Part shown: positions 21 to 28,896 of the stretch, piece after piece
Numbering within the stretch: position 1 is the stretch's first letter
How the letters are laid out: the number at the start of each line of letters is the position of its first letter
Assembly (NCBI GenBank): GCA_020434205.1
Contig: JAGRBF010000357.1
Coordinates: forward strand, 1-40,338
Reading direction: 5' to 3'
Source: Calditrichota bacterium
GTDB lineage: Bacteria > Calditrichota > Calditrichia > RBG-13-44-9 > J075
Length of the DNA stretch: 40,338 nucleotides
Made by a program: the position numbers and the translations under genes
Notes under the pieces: generated by a model
Database searches by the model: none
Told to the model about the DNA's origin: nothing
Seen by the model: only the letters and a program-made list of their open reading frames with translations

Positions 21-910
21 TACTAACCATTGGTGCTAGTTGTTTAAAGGTTGTATTCAGCAATACTCAGAGGGATAAACCCAGCATCATCTGGTTTTAG
101 TCCGTCGAATTGCACCAACAAGTTGAAGGCAGAGACCATAAATGCCAGTCTCATCTTGAAATAGGTCCATTTTCTGTGCATCATTTTTTTGAAATGGCAG
201 ATTAAAGTCAACATTGAGAAAACGGTCTCAACCAACATTCTATCGTTCCAGGTTCCCCTCGGACATAGTTTCAAATTCCTGGGATCACCTGTTTTGGCAT
301 GAAAATGCTGATCTGCAAACACAACCATTTTATCTTCAACCTTTGCGATCAGTGGTTGAAATACTTTGTCAGCGACATTGGCCGTGCTACAATCCCAGTC
401 TACAATGAGGCCGAATTGATTCAGTTGCAGGCAGAATTTTCCACCGACGATCCAGCGATAGTTGGATTTACCTTTCTTGCCAATCTGCTTGGGACTACGG
501 CCTTCCCGAATGGGATGGATTAATTCAATCCCAAAGCTATCGATAACCCCCAGGATGGTGGGTGAGGCAAGAAATCGGTCCGACCAATCCCGATGGGTGG
601 CAAACAAACGGAATAGACGAGTACGTTCCGGTAATTTGGGAAAAAGATGAACCCAATCCCGTTTGAGCCAACGATAGAAAGCACGACAGCCTACTCCTTT
701 GATGGCAAAAAGAATAGCCAGGGTAACAATTTCGCTGGGGTAGAGCTGGCTTTGAGAATGCTTCTTGACCTTATTCATTTGATTATCTATAGTTAGAAAA
801 ATCCGAATGATGAAATCTTCAGTAGGCATGGGGTTTACCTTTCTGTTTGGTCTCTCAACCTTAAGTTAGGTAAATCCTCGCCTACTTTAAACTAGCACCA
901 ATGGTTACTA
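21..910 (-). mobile_element. IS982-family insertion sequence (core 26-905, about 880 bp) with target-site duplication
   Basis: Visibly AT-rich block in a GC-rich window containing a single transposase ORF. Perfect 16-bp terminal inverted repeats ACCATTGGTGCTAGTT (26-41 versus the reverse complement of 890-905), extended by a TTTAAAG block after a 3-nt indel. Flanked by the 5-bp direct repeat TACTA (21-25 and 906-910). Confidence 0.85.
44..829 (-). CDS. DDE transposase, IS982 family
   Basis: 261-aa ORF with an ATG start. From memory it is collinear with the lactococcal IS982 transposase: SEIVTLAILFA...FYRWL...FPKLPERTRLFR, GVIDSFGIEL, GKKGKSNYRWIVGGKFCLQLNQFGLIVDWDCSTANVAD, and a C-terminal ETVFSML...H block. 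It lies between the inverted repeats. Confidence 0.8.
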   Translation of the reverse strand: MPTEDFIIRIFLTIDNQMNKVKKHSQSQLYPSEIVTLAILFAIKGVGCRAFYRWLKRDWVHLFPKLPERTRLFRLFATHRDWSDRFLASPTILGVIDSFGIELIHPIREGRSPKQIGKKGKSNYRWIVGGKFCLQLNQFGLIVDWDCSTANVADKVFQPLIAKVEDKMVVFADQHFHAKTGDPRNLKLCPRGTWNDRMLVETVFSMLTLICHFKKMMHRKWTYFKMRLAFMVSAFNLLVQFDGLKPDDAGFIPLSIAEYNL

Positions 911-2176: not shown

Positions 2177-3568
2177 ATGACTAAAATTCAAAAACTGTCC
2201 GTCTGGGAAAAAGCCGGTTACGGATTCGGCGATCTGGCCTCGGTGCTGTACTGGCAGACCATCAGCGCCTATCTGCTCTATTTTTACACCGATGTTTTCG
2301 GGATTACCGCCGCCGCTGCCGGCACCATGATGCTGATGAGCCGCCTGTGGGACGGGGTCAACGACCCCCTGATGGGCATCCTCGCGGATCGCACCCAAAC
2401 CCGCTGGGGCAAGTTCCGCCCCTATCTGCTGTGGATGGCCGTTCCCCTGGCTATTGCCGGGGTCCTGGCCTTTACCACCCCGGACCTGGACGATTCCGGA
2501 AAGCTGACTTATGCCTACGTCACCTTTTTCCTGCTGATGATGCTTTACACCGCCATCAATATCCCCTATTCTTCCCTGCTGGGGGTGATCACCCCGGACC
2601 CCATCGAACGCACCAGCGTATCGTCCTACAAATACGTTTTTGCCTACATCAGCGGCACCATTGTTTCCGCCCTGGCCCTGCCCATGACCAACTATTTCGG
2701 CCAGGGCGACGAGGCGGCCGGGTGGCAGTGGACCATGGTCATCTTCGGGCTGGCGGCCACCCTCTTTTTTATGATTACCTTTGCCAGCGTGCGGGAACGG
2801 GTTACCCCGCCTAAAAATCAAAAAACCAGCATAGACCGGGACCTGCGGGACTTGCTCAACAACGTTCCCTGGGTGCTGCTGCTGTTCGCCACCCTGCTTT
2901 TTATCCTTTTTGTCGCCACCCGCCTGAGCGTCACCACCCATTATTTCAAATATTTTGTGGGAGAGCAGGAGATTTCCATTCTGGGCTTTTCCGGCAGTTA
3001 CGGTTACGTAGCGCTGACCTCCGCCTTTAACGCCGTCGGCACCTGGGCCGCCATTGTGGGGGTGATCTGCACCAACTACATCGCCGGGTGGATCGGCAAA
3101 AAGCGCGCTTTTCTGATGCTCTTCGTGGTGGCCGCCCTCTCCACCGCCGCCTTTTTCGTGCTGAAGCCGGAGCAGGTGGAGCTGATGTTCGCCCTTCAGG
3201 TAATCGGCTCCTTTACCGGAGGACCGCTCTCTCCCCTTATCTGGGCCATGTATGCCGATGCCGCGGATTATTCGGAATGGAAAACGGGGCGGCGCTCCAC
3301 CGGGCTGGTGTTCTCCGCTTCCACCATGTCTCAGAAATTCGGCTGGGCGATCGGCTCTTACGTGGCGGGAATTCTGCTGAGCTCCTTCGGCTTCGAGGCC
3401 AATATGGAACAGAACGCGGAGGTGCTGTGGGGGCTGAAGGCTCTGATGAGCATTATCCCTGCCGGTGCGGGAGTTCTGGCTATTTTGCTGATTCTTTTCT
3501 ATAATCTGGATGAAGCCAAAATGCAGGAGATTGAGCGGGAGCTGCGGCAACGGCGGGAGGGGGCGTAG
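2177..3568 (+). CDS. Glycoside-pentoside-hexuronide (GPH):cation symporter, MFS superfamily (MelB/YicJ-like)
   Basis: 463 aa and multi-pass hydrophobic. The N-terminus LSVWEKAGYGFGDLASVLYWQTISAYLLYFYTDVFGI and the block RLWDGVNDPLMGILADRT..RWGKFRPY are typical of GPH transporters. Confidence 0.85.
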   Translation: MTKIQKLSVWEKAGYGFGDLASVLYWQTISAYLLYFYTDVFGITAAAAGTMMLMSRLWDGVNDPLMGILADRTQTRWGKFRPYLLWMAVPLAIAGVLAFTTPDLDDSGKLTYAYVTFFLLMMLYTAINIPYSSLLGVITPDPIERTSVSSYKYVFAYISGTIVSALALPMTNYFGQGDEAAGWQWTMVIFGLAATLFFMITFASVRERVTPPKNQKTSIDRDLRDLLNNVPWVLLLFATLLFILFVATRLSVTTHYFKYFVGEQEISILGFSGSYGYVALTSAFNAVGTWAAIVGVICTNYIAGWIGKKRAFLMLFVVAALSTAAFFVLKPEQVELMFALQVIGSFTGGPLSPLIWAMYADAADYSEWKTGRRSTGLVFSASTMSQKFGWAIGSYVAGILLSSFGFEANMEQNAEVLWGLKALMSIIPAGAGVLAILLILFYNLDEAKMQEIERELRQRREGA

Positions 3569-3584
3569 GCGGCAGAGGGAAGAA

Positions 3585-3760
3585 GATCCTGAGATCCGAA
3601 GACCGGAAGACTGGAGGACCGGAGGACCAGAGGACCAATAGACCAATAGACCAATAGAGCAATGGACCAATAGAGCAATGGACCAATAGACCAATAGACC
3701 AATAGACCAATAGACCAAAGGACCAAAAGACCAGAGGATCAAAAGATCAAAAGATCAAAA
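3585..3760 (+). repeat. Tandem array of 22 units of 8 bp (GAYCNNRR; dominant unit GACCAATA)
   Basis: Read directly, with units starting at 3585, 3593, 3601 and so on to 3753. A period of 8 is not a multiple of 3, so the array is non-coding. Confidence 0.95.
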
Positions 3761-3794
3761 GTTTGAAAGACTATTGGAAAAGCGAAAAGAAGGC

Positions 3795-3864
3795 AATCGC
3801 TGATCGCTTCTCGCTGATCGCCCATCGCCTTTCGCTGGTCGCTAATCGCTGATCGCTAATCGCC
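3795..3864 (+). repeat. Tandem array of 10 units of 7 bp (NNTCGCY; for example AATCGCT and GATCGCT)
   Basis: Read directly: aatcgct gatcgct tctcgct gatcgcc catcgcc tttcgct ggtcgct aatcgct gatcgct aatcgcc. Confidence 0.9.
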
Positions 3865-3922
3865 GCAGGCGATAACCATGTAACCATTTAACCATTATCA
3901 GTCATCAACCATTGGAACCCTT
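3859..3922 (+). promoter_or_regulatory. Conserved hairpin (ATCGCC-GCA-GGCGAT, 3859-3873) plus 8-nt-periodic TAACCNTK leader ending at the start codon
   Basis: The block ATCGCCGCAGGCGATAACCATGTAACC (3859-3885) is identical to the reverse complement of 13433-13459. It is followed by taaccatg taaccatt taaccatt ... aaccattggaaccctt ATG. Confidence 0.6.
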
Positions 3923-4915
3923 ATGACATATCAACCCGGCAATAATCGTTACGATACCATGCGCTACAATCGCAGCGGACGCAGCGGACTCAAACTGCCC
4001 GCCATATCCCTGGGACTCTGGCACAATTTCGGGGAGGTCGACCTCTTCGAAAACTGCCGCAAGATGGTGCGCGGGGCTTTCGATTTGGGCATCACCCATT
4101 TCGATCTGGCCAACAACTACGGCCCTCCCCCCGGCTCCGCAGAGGAAACCTTCGGACGCCTGCTGAAAAAGGACCTGTACCCCTATCGGGATGAACTGAT
4201 TATCTCCAGCAAGGCCGGCTATCTGATGTGGGACGGTCCCTACGGGGATTTCGGGTCCCGCAAATACCTGGTGGCCAGCCTGGACCAGAGCCTCAAGCGC
4301 ATGGGTCTGGAATACGTGGATATTTTCTACCACCACCGTCCCGATCCCGATACCCCGCTGGAAGAGACCATGGGCGCCCTGGACTATATCGTGCGCAGCG
4401 GGCGGGCCCTCTACGCCGCGGTCTCCAACTACCCGGCCGATCTGGTGAAACGAGCCGCGGAGATCCTGCGGGATCTGGGCACCCCCTGCCTGATCAATCA
4501 GCCGGTTTACAATATGTTCAATCGCTGGATCGAACCCGAATTGCTGGACGAACTGGAACGGCAGGGAATGGGCTGCATCGTCTTTTCCCCCCTGGCGCAG
4601 GGCATGCTAAGCGACAAGTATCTGAAGGGCATTCCCGGGGATTCCCGGGCCGCCAAATCCCACGGATTCCTGAAGAAATCGGCCATTACCGAGGCCCGCC
4701 TCAGCCAGATCTCCCGGCTGAACGACCTGGCGGCGCAGCGCGGACAAACCCTGGCGCAGATGGCCCTGGCCTGGGTGTTGCGCCACCCGGGGATGACCTC
4801 CGCCCTCATCGGCGCCAGCCGCATCAGCCATATTGAAGACGCGGTCAGCGCCCTGCAGAACCTGGCCTTTTCGGATGAAGAGCTGGGCCGGATCGACGCG
4901 ATTTTGGGAGAATGA
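3923..4915 (+). CDS. yghZ: Aldo-keto reductase, YghZ/Gpr-like (L-glyceraldehyde-3-phosphate reductase family)
   Basis: 330 aa, collinear from memory with E. coli YghZ: SGLKLPAISLGLWHNFG, AFDLGITHFDLANNYGPPPGSAEE.FGRLL, YRDELIISSKAGY, GSRKYL.ASLDQSLKRMGLEYVDIFY.HR and MALAW.L....VTS.LIGASR. Confidence 0.9.
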   Translation: MTYQPGNNRYDTMRYNRSGRSGLKLPAISLGLWHNFGEVDLFENCRKMVRGAFDLGITHFDLANNYGPPPGSAEETFGRLLKKDLYPYRDELIISSKAGYLMWDGPYGDFGSRKYLVASLDQSLKRMGLEYVDIFYHHRPDPDTPLEETMGALDYIVRSGRALYAAVSNYPADLVKRAAEILRDLGTPCLINQPVYNMFNRWIEPELLDELERQGMGCIVFSPLAQGMLSDKYLKGIPGDSRAAKSHGFLKKSAITEARLSQISRLNDLAAQRGQTLAQMALAWVLRHPGMTSALIGASRISHIEDAVSALQNLAFSDEELGRIDAILGE

Positions 4916-9331: not shown

Positions 9332-9377
9332 GTAAAAATTCCTGGTTGGTTGTTGGGGTTACAGGGTTGCATGGTTA
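9332..9377 (-). promoter_or_regulatory. Third copy of the TAACCNTG-periodic leader module, filling the GH5-AGE / GH130 intergenic gap
   Basis: Minus-strand read: TAA TAACCATG CAACCCTG TAACCCCA ACAACCAA CCAGGAAT TTTTAC ATG. The first 22 nt differ at 1 position from the module at 13412-13444. Confidence 0.5.
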
Positions 9378-11702
9378 TTAAGGCGCCTTTTCCAGCATTT
9401 CAATACAGCGAATAAGGGCCCGGATGTTGTGGTAATTGACCTTCCAGTCGCGCGCTTTGGGAGCCCGGATTTGTCCGGGACTTTGGTCCAGTCCTTCTTC
9501 GTACCAGCCGCCGTTCACCTTGTCGATCAGGTAGCTGTCTATATAGCGCCATTCGCTCTCAAAAGCGGCCTGGTAGCGCGCTTCGTCCGGATAAAGGCGG
9601 CTCATCAGCAGAAAAGCATTGAGGGCTTCCGCCTGCACCCACCAGGTTTTCACCTCATCGATAATGGAAATGGGACCGTTTTCCTCGAGGTAATAGCCCT
9701 GGTAAAAGAGTCCCCCGTTTTTGAAATCCCACCCGTTGCCCAGGGCATGGTCCACCATTTTCCGGGCAACCTTTGCGGTGCGGGCATCATTTTCCATCCC
9801 CAGCACCGCGGCCGCCTCCAGCATCAGGAAGGCGGTCTCGACATCGTGCCCAAAGCTGACGTGATCGTAATATTTATTGGCCATACGTTCCGCTTCACTG
9901 GCCTGGCGGAAGGACACCGGGGTCCAGTCGCGCTCCAGAAAGAGGGTCAGATACCCTTTTTCGGTGGTGATGGTATCCCGGATGAGGGTCAGGATTTCCA
10001 GCAGGCGCTCGCGCAGGGTGGGGTCCGGCCATACCTGATACAGGGCGGTGTAGGCTTCCAGGATGTGAATGGAGGAATTCTGATCCTTCCAGGGCGCTTC
10101 CTTGCGGGGGTGGCCTTTGAGAAAGGACCAGGAGCCGTCCCGTTCCAGAATATCGATATAGCCGCCTTTTTCCGGATCCCGGCTGTGTTGGTCCAGCCAG
10201 GCGAAGGTTTTTTGGGCCAGTTCCAGGGCCTGCGGATCTTGGGAAACGGTGAAGTAAGCCGACAGGGCGTAAATGGCAAAGGCATTGCTGTAAGCGGTTT
10301 TGGCGCCACCGTCCCCGGCTGCTTCTCCCTTGCGGTTGCGCAGAAAATAAAAGCCGCCGTATTGGGCATCCCACATTTTGTCCCGCAAAAAGCGAAAACC
10401 GTGCGTGGCGATTTCCCGGTAGCGATCGTCCTGATAAAACAGGGCCAGTTGCGAGGCGCTCCACACGTGGCGGGTCTGGGAAACCAGCATCTTGTTCTGA
10501 GCGCCGGCGGGCTGCCAGCGATAGTCAAAATCGCTCAGAAAACCGCCGTCGCTTTTGTCCAGGGTGCGGGGATACCAGGCCCTGACCACGTATTGCTGCA
10601 GAGAATTTTTCAGCTCTGCGACCAAAGCCTTGCGGCCTGTTTCTGCGGCGGCTTCCGCGTTGTTCAGTTTCATCATTTTGTCCCGGAAAAAGGTGCCCTG
10701 GCGGGTCGGCTCAAAGGTCCAGTCGCGGATCAGTTGGGGCGACCATTGGGGATCGAACACCCAGGCGGTCCAGGAAATACCCTTGCGATCGAAAAAGCCG
10801 ATAATGGCCTCGCCGTAGCTTTCATCCCCGATCACCGGGATGTGCGCCCCGCGCTCCCCGCTGCTCATAAAGCCGAACTCCGTGGCCATCAGCGGATAAG
10901 TATCCGCCGCGAATCCCCAGCTTTCCTCCCATTTGTCCTCCCAGGGTTGGGAGCGCTTTTGGGGATAGGGATGGGTTACGTAGGCCACCCCCGGAAAATC
11001 GATAGGGTCGTAGCGCAGGAAGGACAGATCGTATCCCCAATTGAGCCCGGCTACCAGGGGAATGGCCTCCGGATTGATGGCGTAGATCATCGCGATCAGA
11101 TCTTCCATCAGGGTTTTGTGCTGGGCCCAGGTGTATTTCCCCAGTTTCCCCTCATATTGGGTGGGTTCGTTGAAAAGCTCGTAAAAGGCCACGGTGGGAT
11201 TACCGGCATAGCGGGTGGCGATGGTTTGCCAGAAGCGAAAGGTTTCGGTTTGGGTGGTGTTGTACATCGGCAGAAAAAACACCTCGGTGCGCAGATTGCC
11301 GATGGAATGCCAGTCAATAATCACGTGCATCCCAAGCTCTTCCGCCCAGGCCACTCCCTGGTCGATCAGCCGGAGGTAATCCTCCGGGCCGCGCTCCCGC
11401 CAGGCGCTGGGGTGTACCGGAAAACGCACCACGTTGGCGTGCCAGTCTTTGGCGGCCTGGAAGTAGGCCTTATTCCAGCGCTTTTCCTTTTCCAGCTTGT
11501 CCGGATCGGAGAAGGAGACCCCGCGGAACACCACCGGATTGCCCTGACTGTCGACAAATTGATTGCCCTCTACCTTAATCCGGGAGAGGGGGGCGCTTTT
11601 TTCCTGAGGCAAGACGCTTGTCGCCAGAGCGATGATCAGGAAAAGCGGCAAAAGATTTTTTATGGTGCTGAAGCAATTTGCGATCATGATCTTGTCCGTC
11701 AT
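9378..11702 (-). CDS. Bifunctional-looking exported protein: N-terminal GH5 domain fused to a C-terminal AGE-superfamily (cellobiose 2-epimerase / N-acylglucosamine 2-epimerase-like) domain
   Basis: Hydrophobic N-terminus LLPLFLIIALATSVLPQ. GH5 part (about aa 40-345, nt 10668-11585) with ELFNEPT and MATEFGF. AGE part (about aa 350-774, nt 9381-10655) with QNSSIHILEAY, SFGHDVETAFLMLEA and KTWWVQAEALNAF. The start overlaps the upstream stop as ATGA. Confidence 0.75.
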   Translation of the reverse strand: MTDKIMIANCFSTIKNLLPLFLIIALATSVLPQEKSAPLSRIKVEGNQFVDSQGNPVVFRGVSFSDPDKLEKEKRWNKAYFQAAKDWHANVVRFPVHPSAWRERGPEDYLRLIDQGVAWAEELGMHVIIDWHSIGNLRTEVFFLPMYNTTQTETFRFWQTIATRYAGNPTVAFYELFNEPTQYEGKLGKYTWAQHKTLMEDLIAMIYAINPEAIPLVAGLNWGYDLSFLRYDPIDFPGVAYVTHPYPQKRSQPWEDKWEESWGFAADTYPLMATEFGFMSSGERGAHIPVIGDESYGEAIIGFFDRKGISWTAWVFDPQWSPQLIRDWTFEPTRQGTFFRDKMMKLNNAEAAAETGRKALVAELKNSLQQYVVRAWYPRTLDKSDGGFLSDFDYRWQPAGAQNKMLVSQTRHVWSASQLALFYQDDRYREIATHGFRFLRDKMWDAQYGGFYFLRNRKGEAAGDGGAKTAYSNAFAIYALSAYFTVSQDPQALELAQKTFAWLDQHSRDPEKGGYIDILERDGSWSFLKGHPRKEAPWKDQNSSIHILEAYTALYQVWPDPTLRERLLEILTLIRDTITTEKGYLTLFLERDWTPVSFRQASEAERMANKYYDHVSFGHDVETAFLMLEAAAVLGMENDARTAKVARKMVDHALGNGWDFKNGGLFYQGYYLEENGPISIIDEVKTWWVQAEALNAFLLMSRLYPDEARYQAAFESEWRYIDSYLIDKVNGGWYEEGLDQSPGQIRAPKARDWKVNYHNIRALIRCIEMLEKAP

Positions 11703-13405: not shown

Positions 13406-13453
13406 CGACACCTCAATTAGACAGGGTTACAGGGTTACATGGTTATCGCCTGC

Positions 13454-13509
13454 GGCGATGGGCGAATAGCGAGAAGCGAATAGCGAGAAGCGATCAGCGA
13501 TCAGCGATT
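13454..13509 (-). repeat. Tandem array of 8 units of 7 bp (plus strand RGCGANN, the complement of the NNTCGCY units in copy 1)
   Basis: Read directly: ggcgatg ggcgaat agcgaga agcgaat agcgaga agcgatc agcgatc agcgatt. Confidence 0.9.
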
Positions 13510-13532
13510 GTCTTTTTCTCGCTTTTCCAAGA

Positions 13533-13660
13533 GTCTTCCGGTCTTCCGGTCTTCCGGTCTTTTTGTCCTCTGGTCCTCTGGTCTATCAGTCTTCCGGTCT
13601 TCCGGTCTTCCGGTCTTTTTGTCCTCTGGTCTATCAGTCTTCCCGTCTTCGGATCTTCTT
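13533..13660 (-). repeat. Tandem array of 16 units of 8 bp (plus strand GTCTTCCG / GTCCTCTG / GTCTATCA / GTCTTTTT) with a higher-order repeat
   Basis: Read directly. Units 13533-13588 (7 units) and 13589-13636 (6 units) repeat the same order: 3 x GTCTTCCG, GTCTTTTT, 1-2 x GTCCTCTG, GTCTATCA. Confidence 0.95.
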
Positions 13661-13663
13661 CCC

Positions 13664-16165
13664 CTAATTCCCCTCCTGCAACAGGGCCTCCCCGGCCAGG
13701 GTCAGGAACATAAAATGGGTGGCGCCCCCGCCGATCACGTATTCGGTCTGATGCCAGAAGAACGGCCATTTTTTCAACTCCGGCAAATCCGGCCGCACCA
13801 ACCCCGTGCCGGAAACCACCCCGCCGGGGATGTAAGACCAGTCGGCCCGGTTGGTCCCGTAGGCGATCTCCACGGACTCCCCCCCAACCCCGGAAACAAA
13901 GGATGCGTGGTTATCCCCGGGATGGACGCCCAGCATAAAATTGAGCGCGTTAAAGACCGGCTCCCGGGAAAAGCGCTCCGGCCAGGCGCGGTGCAAATAA
14001 TAATACTGCATGGCAAAACGCTGGATGTCCCAGCCGGGGCCCCAAATGCGCGGGCGATAGGGCACCCCGTAAGGATTGCGATCCATTTCTTCCTGGAGCT
14101 TCCGGGCGGCATCTCCCGCCGCAGTGCTGATCTTTTCCCGAAAATCGGGGTTTTGCAGGCGCGGCCACACTCTGGCGATCAGCCAGCCCAGGCGCTCAAA
14201 CTGCCCCGCAATAATCTCGCCCTGTGCTTCGATGGCCTCCCGGTACTGCGCCTTGCCGGTGGTCAGGAGTAATTCGCAGGAGGCCTCGACCCGTGCCGCG
14301 GCAAATTCCGGGCGACCGGCATAGCTCTCCCAGATCTTTTCGGCGATGGCGAGGGTCTCCCGGGACAGGTCGCGATTGTAGTTCTGCATCACCCGCACCG
14401 CGGCAGCCAGGCAGGCGGCCACATAGAGCTCCCGGCCGGGATTCTCCTCGGTAAACACCCGCCGGTCGTCGTTGCGGCCGGAGCGTTGCCCCAGCATTTC
14501 TCCGGGCCGCAGGGTGCTGTCGAAATTCAGGTTATCGGTCATCACCGAGCCGTCGCCCAGCAGGACGTACTGGCGCAAATCCGGACAGATGATCCCGCGG
14601 TACAGGCGGCCCAGATTGCGATATCCGCCGACGATACTGAGCAGCCCGTGCTCGATCTGCTGCAAAATATCCAGTTTGCCATCCGGGCGGTGCAGTTCCA
14701 CCAGACGCGCCTGCTGGTCCACGGTGGTCTGATCGTAATGGACCCCGAATGCCTCGCGCATCAGGGCCAGCACCCGCACCGTTCCGGCCTGGGATTCCAC
14801 CCGCAGGTCGTAATCGCCGGCATCGTGCCATCCCCCGCGATCCAGCCCCGGGACATGCTGGCCGGATTCATAACGGGTCAGGGTGGAAGGCCCCTGGCGG
14901 TAGCCGTCGAAATGCAGGGTATCGGTATCCGCCATCAGGGCGTCGTCGAGATGACAGACCCCGTGCCAGACCCGGTAGCGGTCGTTGATGCGCATGTGGC
15001 ACATTTGCACCGGCAGGAAGTAGGCCAGAGTGGGCTGCCAGACGTGGCGCTCCAGAACCTGCGGGTCGATGCGAAAGGGATGGGATTGGATATTGCCGTA
15101 ACTGATCCGGTAAGTGCCCGGCTCTTCAACATTGGAGAAATCGAAGGTTTTGTACTGATAGCGCAGGAATTTTCCCCAGGAGGCCGGCTGGCGACGGATT
15201 ATGGCTTTAGCCTCTCCCGAGGCGGCAATACGCCACAGGGTCACCTCCGGCTCCCCTTCCTCCCTGGCATCGCATTCGATAACCGCCACCTTGCTCTGGC
15301 GGGGATGATATCCCAATTGAGAAAGCTGGATCTGAGGCGGGTAACGCCAGCCGGGAACGGTATGGGCGGAAATACGCCAGCGAATCGCCCCTTCTGTGGC
15401 GCCGGAGGGAATGGGGCCGCGCACGATAAACCAGCCGTTGTTGTGGTGAGCTCTGCCGTCCAGCAACTCCAGCTGACCGCTTTGGGCGGTGATGGTGAGG
15501 CGTTGCAGGGGGTTTTCCGGGGCCACGGTCAGGCTTTTTCCGGTGGCGAGGGGGGCCACTTCCCAGGTATCCGGATCCTGGCCCGGCACCATCGGCCCGT
15601 TCAACTGGCGCGGAAAAAGGCCGCCCCGCTGGTCCATCTGATAGGTTTTGCCGAAGAGGTCGGTGGGAAAAAGCTCCAGATTAAAACCGACCTTCCCGAT
15701 CCACCCTTCCGGTAGCGGCTGGTCGAGGTCTACGGAAATCAGGATATCCGGACCTTCGGCTTTCAGGGAGATGCGGTAGGAAAAGTTTAAGTCGGGATAA
15801 GTGATGGGGTTAAATCCCTTGCGATCCAGATCCGGATTGGGATAGCTGCCGGGCACGGTAATGCGGTTGTTATCCCGGTCTATCTGCGGCTCGCCGATTT
15901 TCGGCACCGGCTGCCACTGGCCGGGAGCGGGCTCCAGGCGCACGTCCCCGTTGGCGGCCACCCGGGATCCGTGCTGGATAAGGGTGATCCCGCCCTGGTG
16001 CCCCTCGGGATAAATATCCTGAAAGGCCATGACGTTCAGGCCCGGCATCTCGAAATAACCCAGGTCGTTCAGGCGCAGCCCGTCCTGCCCTAACAAACAG
16101 GAAATTTGTAACAGCAGGGCCAGGAGAACCGCTATCCCGGACACCCTTTTTTCACTTCGGATCAT
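13664..16165 (-). CDS. Secreted GH9-family glycoside hydrolase with N-terminal Ig-like domain
   Basis: 833 aa with signal peptide VSGIAVLLALLLQISCLLGQ. GH9 signature DRGGWHDAGDYDLRV and a C-terminal QTEYVIGGGA resembling the catalytic-Glu block. The size fits Ig-like plus (alpha/alpha)6 GH9 enzymes. Confidence 0.7.
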   Translation of the reverse strand: MIRSEKRVSGIAVLLALLLQISCLLGQDGLRLNDLGYFEMPGLNVMAFQDIYPEGHQGGITLIQHGSRVAANGDVRLEPAPGQWQPVPKIGEPQIDRDNNRITVPGSYPNPDLDRKGFNPITYPDLNFSYRISLKAEGPDILISVDLDQPLPEGWIGKVGFNLELFPTDLFGKTYQMDQRGGLFPRQLNGPMVPGQDPDTWEVAPLATGKSLTVAPENPLQRLTITAQSGQLELLDGRAHHNNGWFIVRGPIPSGATEGAIRWRISAHTVPGWRYPPQIQLSQLGYHPRQSKVAVIECDAREEGEPEVTLWRIAASGEAKAIIRRQPASWGKFLRYQYKTFDFSNVEEPGTYRISYGNIQSHPFRIDPQVLERHVWQPTLAYFLPVQMCHMRINDRYRVWHGVCHLDDALMADTDTLHFDGYRQGPSTLTRYESGQHVPGLDRGGWHDAGDYDLRVESQAGTVRVLALMREAFGVHYDQTTVDQQARLVELHRPDGKLDILQQIEHGLLSIVGGYRNLGRLYRGIICPDLRQYVLLGDGSVMTDNLNFDSTLRPGEMLGQRSGRNDDRRVFTEENPGRELYVAACLAAAVRVMQNYNRDLSRETLAIAEKIWESYAGRPEFAAARVEASCELLLTTGKAQYREAIEAQGEIIAGQFERLGWLIARVWPRLQNPDFREKISTAAGDAARKLQEEMDRNPYGVPYRPRIWGPGWDIQRFAMQYYYLHRAWPERFSREPVFNALNFMLGVHPGDNHASFVSGVGGESVEIAYGTNRADWSYIPGGVVSGTGLVRPDLPELKKWPFFWHQTEYVIGGGATHFMFLTLAGEALLQEGN

Positions 16166-19308: not shown

Positions 19309-21846
19309 TTACTTCACCAGCATCATCTTGCGGGATCTGATGAAATCGCCGGCTTTAAGACGATAGAAATAGACACCGGAAGCGACCTTGCGGCCGTCGT
19401 CATCCCGTCCGTCCCACTGAATCTTATAGAGGCCGGCAACCTGATTGTGGTTTTTCACCAGGGTGCGCACCTTTTGGCCCAGAAGGTTATAGACCTGCAG
19501 GGATACTTCCGCCCGCTTGCCCAGGCTGTAGGTAATGTGGGTGCTGGGGTTGAAGGGGTTGGGATAGTTTTGAGCCAGCTCAAAACCGTCGATATGGGTA
19601 ACGTTATCCCCGATACCGGAGACCACCCGTTCCAGAACCAGCTGGGCGAAGTCGATATTCACATTATTGGCGCCGCCGATGGTGACGTTATGGGTGCCGG
19701 CGGTAAGGCTGAAATTGCCGGTCAGGATGTCGCCGCCGGCAGAGTCGCCAACCGCGCTGGTCAGTTCCACACCGGAGAGTACCGTGCTGCCGTCTACGGC
19801 AATGTCCACGAACTGGGTGCCGGCAGGAGCCTGATAGAAAACGGTCAGGCGGTAGGTGCCGTTTTGCGGTGCTTCCAGAGGCATGGTTACGCTGCCGCCG
19901 TTCAGGGCCACGGACTTAAAGCCGCGCGGGGTCCAGGGAGCGCCTTCGCCGATCAGTTCCACAATGGCGTAGTCGGTGATGTCCGGGGTGGTCAGGGTGT
20001 GCAGCACGGTGCTGGTACCCTGGGTCAGAACCTCAAAACCGCTGAAATCCTGATATCCCCAGGAGGGCTCGACGCGGATGGTGTTGGTCCCGGCCGGCAG
20101 GTTGAGCGCGTCCCCGCCTTCGATCAGGTTGCCCTGCTCGATCAGGTAGGTCTGCCAATCGGTAGACAGGTCGCTCCAGTAATATTCGCCGTAGTTGGCG
20201 TCGTTGCGGATGTTGGTACCGTTAACGATGATGCGCTGTCCGCGCTGAACGTCATTGCTGCGGGTTTCCACGGTCAGGTCCACCGTGGTTGCGGCAGCCA
20301 TGTCGAACGTCCACTCAAAATACCCGCCGCCCTGCATTTGGACATAGGCAAAACCGCTGAAGGTTTCCACGGTTGCGCCGCCGGCCAGGGTACCGTTTTC
20401 GGCATCTTCGTCATCCACCGGGATGTATTCGATGATTTCCCCGGGAATGGCTTCGATATCGGCGATGTATTGGGCTTTGTTTTGTTCGAAGACTTCTTTT
20501 TCGGTGGGGAACCAGTTCAGGTCGCCCAGGGGCAGTCCGTCCGTAGAGCCGCTTTGCAGCGCGGTACTGGTATAGGTGAAGTCTTCCGGCAAGGGCCAGC
20601 TGGGGCATACGTTACAGTCGCCGCCGCCGGGCAGTTGGGGAATTTCATACATATAGTCGGTGGCCGGGGTAATACCGGCGCGCAGATCCATGATATTGGA
20701 GATCATCAGGTTGATTTGCGCGGAGGAGAAGGTGGTATTGAGACCCGGATCGGTAAAGGAGGTGTCTTCAAACACCATCTGATCGTAGGTATTGATGTAA
20801 TCGCGCTTGGTGACGTCGTTCATCAAGGGCTGGGCGCGAATGGAGTCCGCGTAATAAGCGGCGAACAGAGGATCGCGGAAGGCATTGTTATGCGAGAAGG
20901 CGATGCGGCGGCCTTCTTCCGGTCCGTAGATGGAAGGCAGGTCGGCAATGGAGAACAGACCGGAGGCCCAAACCTCGGGATCGCGGTTGGGATTGCTGAG
21001 GTCGGCATTGCCTTCACCGTGCCAGAAACCGTTGACGATCAGGTTGTTGGTGAAGTAGGCTTCCCGCCACCAGCCGCCGGTGTTGACGCTGCGGCCCAGG
21101 TTGATGATGGTGTTGTGGTTGAAGCGGGTGTAGGAAGCCGCGCCGCCTTCCACCTGCAGGGCGGTCATCCCCACGTTGAAGAACGTACAGTTTTCCACGA
21201 TCACGGTGTCCTGATCGATCCACACCGAGGTGCCGCGCCCTTCCCACTGCTGGGTGCTGGGGCGACCAACAACGTTGCGGAAAACGCAGTCGTTGAATTT
21301 AATGGTGTTGCCCGAGTTGGTGAAAGCGACAAAGGAAAAGTTGGTGCGCTCGAAAATGACGTTCTCGAAGGTGTAATTGCGACCGGAACCGGACACTTCG
21401 ATGGGCTGGTAATACGTTTGCACCCCGTTTTCGTCGCACCCGATCAGATACAGGTTTTTCAGGGTAACGTCCCCATTACCGGTGAGCATTTTACCGTCCA
21501 CGTCCCCGTTGTCGTTGCTGACCATCTGGATGGTGGGCGGATTGCCGAACACCGGATCCCCGGGATCCCCTTTTTGCCCCACGATGCGCAGGTGGAAGCC
21601 ATTGGCTTCGATGCGGTCGTTGTTCCAGTAGAAACCGCCCCGCTCCAGCTTGTAAACGCGGTTGGCGGGATGGGTGCCGTCCGGCAGGGTGTCGCCGACG
21701 ATGGTATTGCGCAGGCTGTTTTCCAGGGGATTAATCCCGTCCAGCGACCAGGGCACATCCAGGGTGTCCAGCTGGGCGAACAGCGAACCGCCTGCCACCA
21801 TTCCCAGAACCAGGGCAGACCAAATTAGTTTGTACAGATGCTTCAT
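19309..21846 (-). CDS. Secreted right-handed beta-helix protein with two CBM-like beta-sandwich domains and T9SS C-terminal sorting domain (function unknown; glycan-binding or lyase/hydrolase candidate)
   Basis: Signal peptide LIWSALVLGMVAGGSLFAQ. PbH1-like repeats FENVIFERTNF, KFNDCVFRNV, VIVENCTFFNV, FNHNTIINLG and FTNNLIVNGF. CBM6/35-like segments ENGTLAGGATVETFSGFAYVQ...IRVEPSWGY and GTYRLTVFYQAPAG. T9SS C-terminal domain at 19312-19578 (NYPNPFNPST...GVYFYRLKAG...MMLVK). AGGAGG Shine-Dalgarno. Confidence 0.6.
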   Translation of the reverse strand: MKHLYKLIWSALVLGMVAGGSLFAQLDTLDVPWSLDGINPLENSLRNTIVGDTLPDGTHPANRVYKLERGGFYWNNDRIEANGFHLRIVGQKGDPGDPVFGNPPTIQMVSNDNGDVDGKMLTGNGDVTLKNLYLIGCDENGVQTYYQPIEVSGSGRNYTFENVIFERTNFSFVAFTNSGNTIKFNDCVFRNVVGRPSTQQWEGRGTSVWIDQDTVIVENCTFFNVGMTALQVEGGAASYTRFNHNTIINLGRSVNTGGWWREAYFTNNLIVNGFWHGEGNADLSNPNRDPEVWASGLFSIADLPSIYGPEEGRRIAFSHNNAFRDPLFAAYYADSIRAQPLMNDVTKRDYINTYDQMVFEDTSFTDPGLNTTFSSAQINLMISNIMDLRAGITPATDYMYEIPQLPGGGDCNVCPSWPLPEDFTYTSTALQSGSTDGLPLGDLNWFPTEKEVFEQNKAQYIADIEAIPGEIIEYIPVDDEDAENGTLAGGATVETFSGFAYVQMQGGGYFEWTFDMAAATTVDLTVETRSNDVQRGQRIIVNGTNIRNDANYGEYYWSDLSTDWQTYLIEQGNLIEGGDALNLPAGTNTIRVEPSWGYQDFSGFEVLTQGTSTVLHTLTTPDITDYAIVELIGEGAPWTPRGFKSVALNGGSVTMPLEAPQNGTYRLTVFYQAPAGTQFVDIAVDGSTVLSGVELTSAVGDSAGGDILTGNFSLTAGTHNVTIGGANNVNIDFAQLVLERVVSGIGDNVTHIDGFELAQNYPNPFNPSTHITYSLGKRAEVSLQVYNLLGQKVRTLVKNHNQVAGLYKIQWDGRDDDGRKVASGVYFYRLKAGDFIRSRKMMLVK

Positions 21847-25567: not shown

Positions 25568-26626
25568 ATGAAAAACCCGCTGACGATTAAGGATATTGCC
25601 CGGCTTGCCAATGTCTCCCAATCCACCGTCTCCAAGGCGCTCAACAACCGCCACGACGTCAGCCCCAAAACCAAAGAACGTATTCTGGAAATTGTCAGTC
25701 AGCACAATTTTATCCCGGATGCCTCCGGCAAGGCGCTCAAAAATCGCTATACCAACAACATCGGGGTTATTTTTCGCAAGGACGACAACCCCCTGCGCAA
25801 CCCCTTCTTTTCCCGGGTGCTGGAAGGCATCGAGGCGGAAATCGCCTTCAACGAATACAACCTGATCCTCTACCTGATGCCGGATCACAAAAAACCCGGC
25901 CTGCCCAAAATGGTTCAGCAGCGCCAGGTGGACGGCATTATCCTGGTGGGCACCCAGAGTCCCGATTTTGTGGACACCCTGCGCGAAGCAGGAATTCCCA
26001 CGGTGCTCATCGATCCGCGCGCCCATATCCCCAGCCGCCCCCAGGTGCTCATCGACAACGAAAACGGGGCCTTTCTGGCCACCCGCCACCTCATCGAACA
26101 CGGCCACCGCAAGATCGGCTTTATCGCCGGGGAACTCAGCATCCCCAGCTTCCAGCAGCGCCTGGACGGATACAAAAAAGCCCTCACCTATTACGGGATT
26201 CCCATAACCAAATCGCTGATCAAATGCGGCGGATATGAGGAAGGCTACCGCTTTACCCGCGATTTGTTACAGGACGCGGTAAACCGGCCCACTGCCATCT
26301 TTGCGGCCTACGACATCAACGCCATCCACGGCTATCGGGCCATTTACGAAGCCAACCTGCGCATTCCGGACGATATCAGCTTCGTGGGTTTCGACGATAT
26401 CGACCTGGCGCGCATGGCCAGTCCCCCGCTCACCACCATCCGGGTCTACAAGGAGGAACTGGGATCGGTGGCGGTGCGCAACCTGCGGTCCATTCTCCTG
26501 GGGGAAACCCCGCCCTCCACCACCTCCATCATCCCGGTAAAACTGGTGGAGCGGGATTCGGTTCGCAGCGTGGAAGTCCAGCAGGAATCCGCCCCGGCCA
26601 GGCAGGCCAGCGCCAAAAAAATCTAG
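25568..26626 (+). CDS. LacI/GalR-family transcriptional regulator
   Basis: N-terminal helix-turn-helix TIKDIARLANVSQSTVSKALNN, followed by a periplasmic-binding-protein-like sugar-binding core (VDGIILVG, HRKIGFIAG, SFVGFDD). Confidence 0.9.
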   Translation: MKNPLTIKDIARLANVSQSTVSKALNNRHDVSPKTKERILEIVSQHNFIPDASGKALKNRYTNNIGVIFRKDDNPLRNPFFSRVLEGIEAEIAFNEYNLILYLMPDHKKPGLPKMVQQRQVDGIILVGTQSPDFVDTLREAGIPTVLIDPRAHIPSRPQVLIDNENGAFLATRHLIEHGHRKIGFIAGELSIPSFQQRLDGYKKALTYYGIPITKSLIKCGGYEEGYRFTRDLLQDAVNRPTAIFAAYDINAIHGYRAIYEANLRIPDDISFVGFDDIDLARMASPPLTTIRVYKEELGSVAVRNLRSILLGETPPSTTSIIPVKLVERDSVRSVEVQQESAPARQASAKKI

Positions 26627-26742: not shown

Positions 26743-28896
26743 ATGAAGGTCTTCTTGCGTCGTTTTTTGCTGTTTGTGCTGCTTTTTACCCTGCCCTCCC
26801 TGGCTCAGGATAACCGCATCCGCTACAACAATCAGGATCTATTTCTGAGCGGCTGCAACCTGGCCTGGCTCAATTTCGCCCGCGACATCGGACCCGGGGA
26901 AACCGGCTTTAGCGAGTTCGGCAACATCATGCTGGAAATGCACGACAATGGCGGCAACGCCCTGCGCTGGTGGCTGCACACCAACGGGGTGGTGTCTCCC
27001 GCCTTCGACGGCAACGATCTGGTAACCGGCCCCGGGGCCGGGGCTATCGAAGATCTGCGCACCGTTCTGGATCTGGCCTGGGAGCGGGAAATCGGCCTCA
27101 AGCTGTGCCTGTGGTCTTTTGACATGCTGCGCCTCTCCAACAGTTCGGATATGCTGCGCCGCAACCGTCTGCTGCTGGAGGACACCACCTACACCCGCGC
27201 CTACATCAACAACGCCCTGATTCCCATGGTGGACTCCCTGGCCGGGCATCCCGCCATTATCGCCTGGGAGATCTTCAACGAACCGGAGGGCATGAGCAAC
27301 GAGTTCGGCTGGGCGGACATCGGCCACGTGGCCATGGCGGACATCCAACGCTTTGTCAATCTATGCACCGGGGCCATTCACCGCAGCGATCCCAACGCCC
27401 TGGTTACCAACGGCACCTGGTCCTTTCTGGCCCTCACCGACATCACTACCGGGGCCCGCGAGGAGGCCCAAACCCGACTGGCAACCCTTTCCACCGCCCA
27501 AAAGCGCGATATGGAAAGGCGTTTTACCGCCAAATACGATCTGAAACTTTCCGCCGAAGAGATCATCCATCACTTCGCCAAAGTGGACAGCAATACCAAC
27601 TACTACCGGGACGACCGGCTGATCGCCGCCGGGGGAGATCCGGACGGGGTTCTGGACTTCTACTCCGTGCACTACTACGACTGGGCCGGCACCGCCCTCT
27701 CCCCCTTCCACTGGTCCAAGGGGCGATGGCAGCTCAACAAACCCCTGCTGATCGCGGAATTCCACATGATCGACACCTTCGGGATTCCCAAAACCGAACT
27801 TTTCGAGCGCCTGCATCTGTTCGGATATGCCGGGGCCCTGCCCTGGTCCTGGACGGATAATCAGGTAACCCGCGTGCCCGATATGCTGGCCGGGATGTTG
27901 TCCATGTGGCAGAATCACCGCGCGGATGTGGACGTCCTGGGCATCGGGGGAGACTGGCCGCTGGTAAGCATCACCAGCCCGGACAGCGGGGCGGTTTTCG
28001 GGGACAGCGCCACCGTAGAAATTGTCGCCGACGCCAGCGATGCCGACGGCAGCGTGAGCCTGGTCGAATTTTACGCGGACGACCTCCGTCTCGGCGAAAG
28101 CAGCAGCACTCCCTTCACGTTCTCCTGGAGCGGCATGGCGCCGGGGCAATATTTTCTGAGCGCGGTGGCCACCGATGACGCCGGCCATCAGCGCACCTCC
28201 CGGCGAGTACCCGTCACCATCGGCACCTTAACCCGGGTGCGCCTGGAGGCGGAGGACGCCGAGCTGGCGGGCACTCCCAGCGTCGAAAGCCACCCCCAGG
28301 CCAGCGGAGGACGCTACCTGCGTTTCGGCCAAAACGGGACGGTAACCTACCATATCGCCGGAGTTCCCGCGACGGGCACCTATCAGGTCACCTTGGGATA
28401 CCGCAGTCCTTTCGGGGAAAAAACCCAGTACATCAATGTGAACGGGGTGCGCACCCACACCCTGGTATTTCCGCTCACCAACAACTGGACTGAGATGACC
28501 ATTTCGGTGGACCTTCTGGCGGGCAACAACGAAATTCAGATGGAGCTGTTCTGGGGATGGATGGATCTGGATTATATGGACGTGCCGGCGGGGATCAGCC
28601 TGGTGGCAATCGGCGATCCGGTCGTCTTACCGCAGGATTTTGTTCTGGAGCAAAACTACCCCAACCCCTTCAATCCGGCCACAACCATTGGGTATCACCT
28701 GCCGCAGGCCGGTCGGGTAACCCTCAGCGTCTTCGACCTGCTCGGCCGGGAAATTGCGGTGCTGGAAAGCGGGTTTAAAACGGCGGGCCGCCACACGGTT
28801 CGTTTCGATGGGGAGAATCTGCCCAGCGGGGTCTATTTTTACCGGCTCAGGGCCGGGGAATCGCTTTCGCAAAAACGTATGATTCTGGTGAAATAG
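26743..28896 (+). CDS. Secreted GH5 endo-beta-mannanase-like enzyme with Ig-like domain, CBM6/35-like domain and T9SS C-terminal sorting domain
   Basis: Signal peptide. LSGCNLAWLNFARDIG, acid/base AWEIFNEPEG, VHYYDW and nucleophile-like LLIAEFHM. Ig-like VSITSPDSG...ATDDAGH. CBM-like RLEAEDAEL...GRYLRF...GTYQVTLGYR. T9SS C-terminal domain at 28645-28893. Confidence 0.75.
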   Translation: MKVFLRRFLLFVLLFTLPSLAQDNRIRYNNQDLFLSGCNLAWLNFARDIGPGETGFSEFGNIMLEMHDNGGNALRWWLHTNGVVSPAFDGNDLVTGPGAGAIEDLRTVLDLAWEREIGLKLCLWSFDMLRLSNSSDMLRRNRLLLEDTTYTRAYINNALIPMVDSLAGHPAIIAWEIFNEPEGMSNEFGWADIGHVAMADIQRFVNLCTGAIHRSDPNALVTNGTWSFLALTDITTGAREEAQTRLATLSTAQKRDMERRFTAKYDLKLSAEEIIHHFAKVDSNTNYYRDDRLIAAGGDPDGVLDFYSVHYYDWAGTALSPFHWSKGRWQLNKPLLIAEFHMIDTFGIPKTELFERLHLFGYAGALPWSWTDNQVTRVPDMLAGMLSMWQNHRADVDVLGIGGDWPLVSITSPDSGAVFGDSATVEIVADASDADGSVSLVEFYADDLRLGESSSTPFTFSWSGMAPGQYFLSAVATDDAGHQRTSRRVPVTIGTLTRVRLEAEDAELAGTPSVESHPQASGGRYLRFGQNGTVTYHIAGVPATGTYQVTLGYRSPFGEKTQYINVNGVRTHTLVFPLTNNWTEMTISVDLLAGNNEIQMELFWGWMDLDYMDVPAGISLVAIGDPVVLPQDFVLEQNYPNPFNPATTIGYHLPQAGRVTLSVFDLLGREIAVLESGFKTAGRHTVRFDGENLPSGVYFYRLRAGESLSQKRMILVK

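Follow-up and report, generated by a model that had tools for sequence, protein, structure and literature searches.

What fills the 354-nt gap between an MFS_2/GPH transporter gene and an aldo-keto reductase gene in contig JAGRBF010000357.1 of a Calditrichota bacterium, and does it regulate its neighbors or simply travel in their mRNA? An original prediction, made from the letters of this contig, described the gap as an ordered composite of short tandem repeats with conserved anchors, present twice, and offered three candidate roles: an mRNA-borne landing pad or sponge that an RNA-binding protein would occupy, a copy-number-variable spacer, or a dispersed repeat. We followed up this element in the window (the whole 40,338-nt contig), in other assemblies of the same locus, and in sequences from other organisms. 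Our best reading is that it behaves like a species-specific compound microsatellite, similar to a variable-number tandem repeat, rather than a proven regulatory device. On balance, and by a modest measure, we favor the view that slippage built it as a compound tandem repeat, which is young and confined to this species, became duplicated, and is passively co-transcribed.

Two stop-to-start gaps share one compound tandem repeat

Two full copies of the element are present in the window (Table 1). As predicted, both extend from the stop codon of one gene to the start codon of the next in the sense orientation of the flanking genes. Both consist of the same modules in the same order: a head anchor, an array of 8-mers, a junction anchor, an array of NNTCGCY 7-mers, a hairpin, and an AACC-periodic segment that we call the TAACC leader. 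We read this anatomy directly from the sequence and then checked it with Tandem Repeats Finder, a repeat finder, and a unit-by-unit script; all of these agree and confirm the coordinates of copy 1 and the module order of both copies. The pattern is far beyond chance, and the description of the element holds: it is a structured repeat whose anchors are homologous, rather than random low-complexity sequence.

The homology of the two copies is clearest in their nonrepetitive parts. The head anchor is identical at 13/13 positions (copy 2, 13663-13651), and the script reproduced both of the predicted anchor matches, namely 35/39 identical positions in the junction and 27/27 in the longest block common to the two copies, ATCGCCGCAGGCGATAACCATGTAACC (copy 1, 3859-3885; copy 2, 13459-13433). 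Altogether, 4 of the 79 positions of the nonrepetitive anchors differ (approximately 5% divergence), a level that is consistent with recent duplication, with no need to invoke selection.

The arrays correspond at their edges and differ in their interiors. The first 8-mer units of one copy match those of the other (GATCCGAA, GACSGGAA, GACTGRWR, and GACCAGAG), as do the last 8-mer units (GACTMTTG and GAAAAGCG) and the first 7-mers (AATCGCT, GATCGCT, and TCTCGCT). The center of the copy 1 8-mer array is homogenized to GACCAATA and GAGCAATG, while the interior of copy 2 is built from a super-unit rich in GACCGGAA, which is composed of GACTGATA, GACCAGAG (once or twice), GACAAAAA, and three units of GACCGGAA. 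This combination of conserved edges with divergent, homogenized centers points to slippage or unequal exchange after the duplication. The 5' arm of the copy 1 hairpin is the last 7-mer unit, and Tandem Repeats Finder reports a period of 8 at 3873-3896 in the copy 1 leader.

A third site, overlooked in the original prediction of two copies, carries the leader only. Here, a short palindrome, AAGGCGCCTT, stands before a leader that has 22/23 identity to that of copy 2 and a period of 8 at 9356-9377 (Tandem Repeats Finder). Its core is ATAACCATGCAACCCTGTAACC (9378-9357, minus strand), and the pattern ATAACCATGYAACCNTKTAACC matches all three leader sites. The leader module is therefore an independent unit, since it is found alone 5' of the glycoside hydrolase family 130 (GH130) gene.

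TABLE 1 Coordinates of the three element copies, their modules, and adjoining genes
Feature	Position	Strand	Description
MFS_2/GPH transporter gene	2177-3568	+	5' of copy 1
Copy 1, full element	3569-3922	+	354 nt; fills the gap from the MFS_2/GPH transporter stop to the aldo-keto reductase ATG
Copy 1 head anchor	3577-3589	+	GGGAAGAAGATCC; starts 8 nt past the transporter stop codon
Copy 1 8-mer array	3585-3776	+	22 in-phase GAYCNNRR units (3585-3760) plus two degenerate in-phase units, GTTTGAAA and GACTATTG
Copy 1 junction anchor	3769-3807	+	GACTATTGGAAAAGCGAAAAGAAGGCAATCGCTGATCGC; 39 nt
Copy 1 7-mer array	3795-3864	+	Ten NNTCGCY units
Copy 1 hairpin	3859-3873	+	ATCGCC-GCA-GGCGAT; 6-bp stem, 3-nt loop, no U-tract
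Copy 1 TAACC leader	3872-3922	+	ATAACCATGTAACCATTTAACC...; AACC-periodic, G-poor, unstructured; ends at the aldo-keto reductase ATG
Aldo-keto reductase gene	3923-4915	+	3' of copy 1; ATG at 3923
Third copy, leader only	9332-9378	-	ATAACCATGCAACCCTGTAACCCC...; GH5-epimerase gene stop to GH130 ATG; without 8-mers, 7-mers, or junction
Copy 2, full element	13663 down to 13406	-	258 nt; GH9 stop to DUF5060-GH5 start; module order as in copy 1
Copy 2 TAACC leader	13406-13446	-	ATAACCATGTAACCCTGTAACCCTG...; followed by GAGGTG and ATG at 13405 of the DUF5060-GH5 gene
Copy 2 hairpin	13445-13459	-	ATCGCC-GCA-GGCGAT
Copy 2 7-mer array	13454-13509	-	Eight NNTCGCY units
Copy 2 junction anchor	13497-13535	-	GACTCTTGGAAAAGCGAGAAAAAGACAATCGCTGATCGC
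Copy 2 8-mer array	13528-13655	-	15 units plus GACTCTTG; 48/56-nt super-repeat
Copy 2 head anchor	13651-13663	-	GGGAAGAAGATCC; immediately 3' of the GH9 stop codon
GH9 (glycoside hydrolase family 9) gene	13664-16165	-	5' of copy 2

The borders of copy 2 needed one correction. The element had been placed at 13412-13663; its location stands, and its lower boundary does not, because the DUF5060-GH5 gene more likely starts at ATG 13405 than at GTG 13411. The ATG is preceded by GAGGTG, and the corresponding 568-amino-acid start is called in NCBI and ENA assemblies, so that copy 2 likely ends at 13406. At the other border, the GH9 protein terminus coincides with the termini of its homologues, and copy 2 thus begins after the native GH9 stop. 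For the same reason, we rejected the idea that the element donated the last codons of its upstream genes, both of which end in GGAGGGG...TAG. The predicted noncoding status is also borne out: across more than 10 assemblies, no gene caller places an open reading frame (ORF) in either gap.

The anchors occur only at the sites described here within approximately 50 kb of the host genome (the window plus 10 kb of extra sequence from a second contig of the same genome, L053), and neither the 40-kb window nor those additional 10 kb contain a further array of period 7 or 8.

The leaders also contain short reading frames. Upstream of GH130, where the leader stands alone, an ORF of 14 codons (MQPCNPNNQPGIFT) starts at the ATG of ATAACCATGCAACC. 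Its terminal TGA shares bases with the ATG of GH130 (ATGA), as is typical of translationally coupled genes. At the equivalent leader position, within the conserved 27-nt block, copies 1 and 2 carry ATG-TAA, a minimal start-stop.

The element recurs in independent assemblies and varies by one unit

Low-complexity arrays can be products of assembly, and several contigs in short-read and Logan assemblies do end inside these (L049, L050, L196, L204, and L210). Look-ups with the flanking proteins recovered more than 10 independent assemblies of the locus, made from MEGAHIT contigs, metaSPAdes-type scaffolds, Logan contigs, and metagenome-assembled genomes (MAGs) at NCBI. Copy 1 is base-for-base the same in all of these apart from the single length variant described below, and some contigs span both flanking genes. 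Because the same sequence was obtained in different projects and by different assemblers, the arrays are real; an artefact is refuted as far as the assemblies show, and we regard it as a negligible prospect. The arrays are instead a practical cause of assembly breaks, since contigs end within them: Logan and MAG contigs break within the copy 2 8-mers, and one large contig begins just 3' of copy 1.

The one difference among assemblies lies in the GACCAATA run of copy 1, which has either 4 units or 3. Copy 1 thus has 22 units in seven assemblies (L002, L193, L194, L197, L199, L200, and the window) and 21 units in three (L001, L195, and L198), which belong to a single sample series (ERZ2730xxxx). 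The seven assemblies that span copy 2 show no difference in it, and the leader-only copy is identical in five others besides the window. This polymorphism between independent metagenome assemblies gives direct, if modest, support to the proposal of a copy-number-variable spacer.

The same polymorphism would be expected of a contingency locus, in which the gain or loss of 8-nt or 7-nt units switches or grades the downstream gene, as in hmw1A of Haemophilus influenzae. Intergenic repeats are known to affect transcription and the processing of 5' untranslated regions (UTRs) and mRNA, and 7-nt repeats lie upstream of hmw1A and hmw2A (PMC8262952, PMC12721329). Like those loci, the element places short-unit tandem arrays 5' of a gene and differs in unit number between populations. 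However, its units are imperfect and mixed, which implies a lower slippage rate; no promoter elements were detected flanking the arrays, which lie outside any ORF and between two cistrons rather than between a promoter and its gene; and only a single one-unit variant was seen, with two copy 1 alleles in 10 assemblies and no variation of copy 2 in seven. We therefore consider a contingency locus unlikely.

A comparison with relatives of the host suggests that the element is young and restricted to this species. The nearest are approximately 60% identical in the GH9 protein. Two that keep parts of the gene cluster (L051 and L211) have no arrays of period 7 or 8, and their gaps after GH9 are unrelated and approximately 100 nt long; because these relatives are so distant (approximately 60% amino acid identity; GC content, 48% versus 58%), the orthologous gaps are uninformative for a comparison of noncoding sequence.

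Transcription signals and RNA structure

We next asked whether the element carries signals of its own. A scan of the elements detected neither a sigma-70 promoter nor an intrinsic terminator on the sense strand, although the sigma-70 consensus may not be that of the host lineage. With neither signal inside it, the element is probably transcribed within the operon mRNA. Candidate leader promoters of the extracytoplasmic function (ECF) type (TGTAAC-N17-CGTC) and the Bacteroidetes type (TTTG / TAnnTTTG) were rejected by eye, as no consistent -10 or -7 box is present across the three copies. We also rejected the hairpin as an intrinsic terminator: AACCAUGUAACC comes after its stem, there is no U-tract, and the terminator scan did not report it.

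The transcript of the element is not predicted to form a stable structure. The RNAs of the whole elements fold no better than shuffled sequences (z = +0.86 for copy 1 and +0.47 for copy 2), and the three leader regions show, if anything, a deficit of structure relative to their shuffled versions (z = +0.5 to +1.2; copy 1 leader, +0.74). The centroid folds of the two copies have just two structures in common, the 6-bp hairpin and a stem between AAGCGA of the junction and TCGCTT of the first 7-mers. Searches of Rfam gave no match at the gathering threshold for the whole window and none at an E value of ≤1 for the two copies, apart from a chance SNORD2 hit (E = 0.97).

These results bear on the proposed landing pad or sponge in the operon mRNA, which would be read by a CsrA-type protein that recognizes GGA or by an oligomeric reader of a 7- to 8-nt motif. 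Such a role would suit the periodic cores of the element (GAC and UAACC at 8-nt intervals and UCGC at 7-nt intervals), its sense orientation at 3/3 sites, and its 12 to 13 GGA motifs per copy. The prediction had counted 12 GGA motifs in the 8-mer part of each copy; this is approximately right for the whole elements (13 in copy 1 and 12 in copy 2), but the 8-mer parts hold 10 each. Its other composition counts are correct, with 8 GATC sites in copy 1 (3 in copy 2) and 8-mer parts that are 69% (copy 1) and 75% (copy 2) purine. At 37 to 48 per kb, compared with 22 per kb in the whole window, GGA is enriched only about twofold. It is missing from the dominant copy 1 unit GACCAATA and is not displayed in hairpin loops, and the folds contain no array of stem-loops. 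The element resembles CsrB and RsmZ in having many GGA motifs on a purine-rich transcript, but unlike these it is not a stand-alone small RNA gene, its GGA motifs lie outside loops and are not conserved among the units, and it matches no Rfam family, including the CsrB/Rsm families. Nor do the copies share a unit motif beyond GAC. No CsrA family member was found among those window ORFs that were scanned against Pfam or among the precomputed Pfam hits of the called genes in the additional 10 kb of L053. With no promoter or terminator of its own in addition, the element does not fit the CsrA-type proposal, and we consider a landing pad of either kind improbable.

A long, untranslated, unstructured spacer inside an operon might instead load Rho. 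In this explanation, 250 to 350 nt of untranslated RNA with a YC dinucleotide every 7 to 8 nt would form a site of Rho-dependent polarity or attenuation and so tune downstream transcription. The 7-mer and leader part is indeed richer in C (32 to 37%) than in G (18%), and its YC spacing, judged from the sequence, is regular. However, the 8-mer part of copy 2 is G-rich (33 to 35% G), and the best C-minus-G excess over 78 nt, at 0.14 and 0.19, falls only between about the 90th and 99th percentiles of the values for ordinary coding windows in this contig (0.167 at the 95th percentile and 0.218 at the 99th). As a mark of Rho loading, the C-over-G excess appears unremarkable. A Rho site is a slim prospect, marginally ahead of the landing pad.

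Similar arrays in other genomes and metagenomes

We then looked for the element and its modules beyond the host genome. The scans of a genome collection and of metagenomes from the Joint Genome Institute (JGI) covered other organisms, and the window's own copies are not among their matches.

These scans bear on whether the element could belong to a dispersed or mobile intergenic family, such as repetitive extragenic palindromic (REP) sequences or bacterial interspersed mosaic elements (BIMEs), miniature inverted-repeat transposable elements (MITEs), or cassettes, that spreads from gap to gap by transposition or gene conversion and reaches a high copy number in its genome. Such a family might leave behind what is seen within these 10 kb, namely, two full copies and a partial one that are inverted relative to each other, have nearly identical anchors, and each lie exactly from stop to start. 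In addition, 19 to 22 nt identical to the hairpin and AACC occur within an otherwise unrelated intergenic element of approximately 190 nt in three JGI contigs (L018, L022, and L032). Against this, the borders of our element show neither terminal inverted repeats nor a target-site duplication; its ends are GGGAAGAAGATCC and the TAACC array, which are not mutually inverted. No more copies were found in the 50 kb of host genome read, and a scan of IMG/VR with the junction gave no matches. The hairpin scan of JGI metagenomes returned 31 loci, 28 of which are coding or otherwise unrelated, and most of those 28 represent the IAAGDN motif of a metallophosphoesterase. Like REP sequences and BIMEs, the element is extragenic, lies between convergent or co-directional genes, and includes a small GC hairpin, but REP sequences are imperfect palindromes of 20 to 40 nt present in hundreds of copies and without tandem 7- or 8-mers, whereas here the hairpin measures 15 nt and two or three copies are seen. 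We judge a mobile family to be unlikely, although it is the foremost of the alternatives.

The approximately 190-nt element is itself conserved among the three contigs (L018:900-1100, L022:630-870, and L032:1940-2135). It is bounded by inverted ACTCAAACTGACC / GGTCAGTTTGAGT and holds the window's 19-nt hairpin sequence ATCGCCGCAGGCGATAACC followed by ATTCGTN heptamers; in L018, translation of the flanks suggests that its neighbors are rplM on one side and rpsI on the other. This element could represent a MITE or else a structured RNA.

The array cores were also searched for in IMG/VR, whose phage contigs commonly carry octamer and heptamer arrays of this sort. Arrays of GACCRRRR occur at 14 loci, while two control cores gave 30 (CAGC) and 16 (GCAC), and the GACC core is thus not special. 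Heptamer arrays of the form TCGCYNN x5 occur at no fewer than 120 loci (at least 120), with up to 55 units among the matches listed. These include very long, perfect TCGCTGG arrays in three prophage contigs (L085, L086, and L159; approximately 49% GC, derived from isolate genomes), again with up to 55 units among the matches listed. Two phage contigs, L060 (throughout its 4.6 kb) and L062 (2260-2400), carry compound 8-mer and 7-mer arrays in the sense orientation at several gene junctions; their architecture is like that of our element, with no sequence homology. Examples of these junctions are (GACCAARA)4, (TGCCAAC)3, ATG and also (AATGCAA)n, (ACTTTTN)n, GTG.

The leader pattern found matches in the genome collection, on 11 contigs of RGIG10164, a Bacteroidales MAG from yak rumen (JAGCVQ01; L004-L012, L014, and L015). 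In that genome, octamer arrays of (NTAACCNT)n with 3 to 11 units stand in many intergenic gaps (18 arrays in approximately 85 kb), about 6 of them in sense and about 6 in antisense orientation, while the remainder have convergent or divergent neighbors. These arrays resemble a genome-wide family, apparently undescribed, of the kind known as short tandemly repeated repetitive (STRR) sequences, and in the literature we found no octamer repeats described for Bacteroidetes or KSB1. Some of the RGIG10164 arrays are directly 3' of terminator-like hairpins, some are beside the octamer arrays GTTCCAAG and GATAATGG, and some are just upstream of TAtcTTTG -7 boxes. In a Verrucomicrobiia MAG (DASRBR01; L013:260-360), a single intergenic gap holds a pair of short octamer arrays of the TAACC type that are inverted relative to each other (GGTTAAATAGTTACATGGTTACAT ... 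ATAACCATGTAACCATGTAACC) and could jointly form a long hairpin.

The occurrence of TAACC arrays in either orientation in RGIG10164 counts further against an RNA landing pad. More generally, the prediction had held that a regulatory role would be undermined if the anchors occurred nowhere else and if copies in relatives lay in random orientation; the anchors were found nowhere else, and the TAACC repeat lies in both orientations in RGIG10164, the only other organism rich in it, so that the idea of a regulatory element is weakened.

Orientation independence is, however, what would be expected of an array of sites at the DNA level, bound by a nucleoid-associated protein or transcription factor that regulates internal promoters of the glycan cluster. 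The units are direct repeats, multiples of which fall near whole helical turns by our estimate (3 x 7 = 21 bp and 4 x 8 = 32 bp), the cluster includes a gene for a LacI-family regulator (25568-26626), and some of the RGIG10164 arrays adjoin -7 boxes as described above. LacI-type operators, though, are palindromic and not direct 7- to 8-bp repeats, no promoter was detected, and the units are not conserved between copies. We find a DNA-level array very improbable.

Origin and possible roles of the element

Taking these results together with our preferred reading of a slippage-built, passively co-transcribed repeat, we propose the following history. An ancestral spacer, comprising the head, a few GAC-type 8-mers, the junction, a few TCGC 7-mers, the hairpin, and the TAACC leader, would have been copied into a second stop-to-start gap. 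The array interiors would then have expanded and been homogenized separately, by replication slippage or unequal exchange, while the anchors stayed nearly identical: copy 1 would have expanded GACCAATA and copy 2 the 48/56-nt super-unit rich in GACCGGAA. The arrays themselves would most likely be near-neutral, A-rich, weakly structured filler of variable length that separates two cistrons. The only credible functional parts would be the 6-bp GC hairpin, 40 to 50 nt upstream of the start codon, and the G-poor, unstructured TAACC leader. Hairpin and leader may give the downstream cistron an open translation initiation region. If the mRNA were cut within the unstructured arrays, the hairpin could also shield the 5' end thus created.

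Four points weigh against this reading. First, the copies are mutually inverted, yet each runs from stop to start in sense, as does the leader-only copy; neutral duplication does not predict this, although with two or three sites the point is weak. Second, anchors with 27/27 and 13/13 identical positions beside reorganized arrays could reflect purifying selection rather than youth. Third, the arrays are not highly unstable, because copy 2 is invariant in seven assemblies and copy 1 varies by one unit, in a sampled population that is almost clonal. Finally, an internal promoter is possible, as the promoter types of the host lineage may differ from those scanned.

A functional alternative would be an undescribed intercistronic RNA cassette. 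Here, an oligomeric factor that binds RNA, either Rho or a protein not yet known, would dock at many sites on a platform formed by the three periodic arrays. This platform, together with the hairpin and the AUG-UAA start-stop of the 27-nt block, would set how far the polysaccharide utilization operon is expressed downstream. We give this reading the same slight chance as the Rho site; if it were true, the phage junction arrays (L060 and L062) and the TAACC arrays of the rumen Bacteroidales would belong to the same broad class.

Several known repeat systems resemble the element in part, the nearest being the STRR heptamers of cyanobacteria, the intergenic repeats of contingency loci, and the tandem repeats of Borgs. 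In eukaryotes, compound microsatellites consist of adjoining arrays of different short units with degenerate edges and homogenized centers. Our element has the same bordering arrays, degenerate edges, and homogenized centers, but it lies in a bacterial operon, has unique conserved anchors, and exists in two paralogous copies. The hallmark of STRR sequences is their genome-wide abundance, with approximately 100 loci per genome in heterocystous cyanobacteria. They share with our element tandem 7-nt units (here, 10 and 8 NNTCGCY heptamers), noncoding status, an intercistronic position within an operon, and an association with hairpins. They differ from it in their unit sequences and their cyanobacterial host, and they lack octamers, whereas here octamer arrays flank the heptamers and three arrays (periods 8, 7, and 8) follow a fixed order with unique anchors. 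The STRR sequences between hupS and hupL are 7-bp repeats that can form hairpins, and their function is unknown but perhaps related to the transcript (PMC2670836). Borgs, which are extrachromosomal elements, carry intergenic tandem repeats that are A-rich, absent from relatives, and built mostly of units whose length is not divisible by three (PMC9879509). Our element is likewise A-rich, lineage specific, and recent, with unit lengths mostly not multiples of three, but Borg repeats are perfect, pervasive, and made of units of approximately 20 nt, whereas here the units are degenerate, 7 to 8 nt long, and known from two or three loci. A clustered regularly interspaced short palindromic repeat (CRISPR) array was rejected: the units are 7 to 8 nt and stand head to tail without spacers, whereas CRISPRs have 23- to 50-nt repeats and unique spacers. 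The element stands apart in that three arrays of differing period keep a fixed order between unique anchors, in two paralogous copies.

If the element is a slippage-built, passively transcribed repeat, it cleanly illustrates the birth, duplication, and divergence of compound short-unit repeats within operons of bacteria. It would also be a recurrent source of contig breaks in metagenomes, and its 21-unit and 22-unit alleles would provide a natural strain marker. If instead its anchors or arrays are functional, they would offer a tractable case of posttranscriptional tuning between cistrons in an uncultured lineage whose signals are essentially unknown and a first function for the long-unexplained repeats of the STRR type.

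Genomic context and host

Copy 2 and the leader-only copy lie in a minus-strand glucan/mannan operon, in the order TonB receptor, carbohydrate-binding module family 35 (CBM35) protein, FG-GAP protein, GH5, GH9, copy 2, DUF5060-GH5, GH5-epimerase, leader, GH130, GH1, and SSF transporter. The other intercistronic gaps of that operon measure 15 to 82 nt, compared with 258 and 354 nt for the element-bearing gaps, and the latter are long because of the arrays.

The host is an uncultured bacterium whose locus was found in activated-sludge and related metagenomes. Its proteins include C-terminal sorting domains of the type IX secretion system (T9SS) and a TonB receptor with a CarboxypepD_reg domain, and their best named homologues come from candidate division KSB1. 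By these markers, the host belongs to the Fibrobacterota-Chlorobiota-Bacteroidota (FCB) group and is not a cyanobacterium.

Three further features of the window are worth recording. In the glucan/mannan operon, one 774-amino-acid protein (9378-11702, minus strand) fuses a GH5 cellulase/mannanase domain with an N-acylglucosamine/cellobiose 2-epimerase domain, and its gene adjoins those for GH130 and GH1; the arrangement suggests that one operon encodes the breakdown of mannan or glucomannan by an epimerase-phosphorylase route.

At the extreme end of the contig, adjoining the FGE-sulfatase gene, is an insertion sequence (IS) of approximately 890 bp (20-911) with 22-nt terminal inverted repeats (20-41 and 890-911; 95% complementary). 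It encodes a 261-amino-acid DDE transposase (44-829, minus strand; PF13612) and has a GC content of 45% versus 58%. The transposase copy in the window is unique in the database, its nearest homologue being 78% identical, and the insertion is polymorphic, as it is absent from the same locus in assembly L193.

Lastly, a 52-nt inverted match (77%) connects 19534-19585 with 28638-28689, toward the 3' ends of a pair of oppositely oriented genes. Each of these genes encodes a CBM35 protein that has a T9SS sorting domain, and the match probably reflects this common C-terminal sorting domain.

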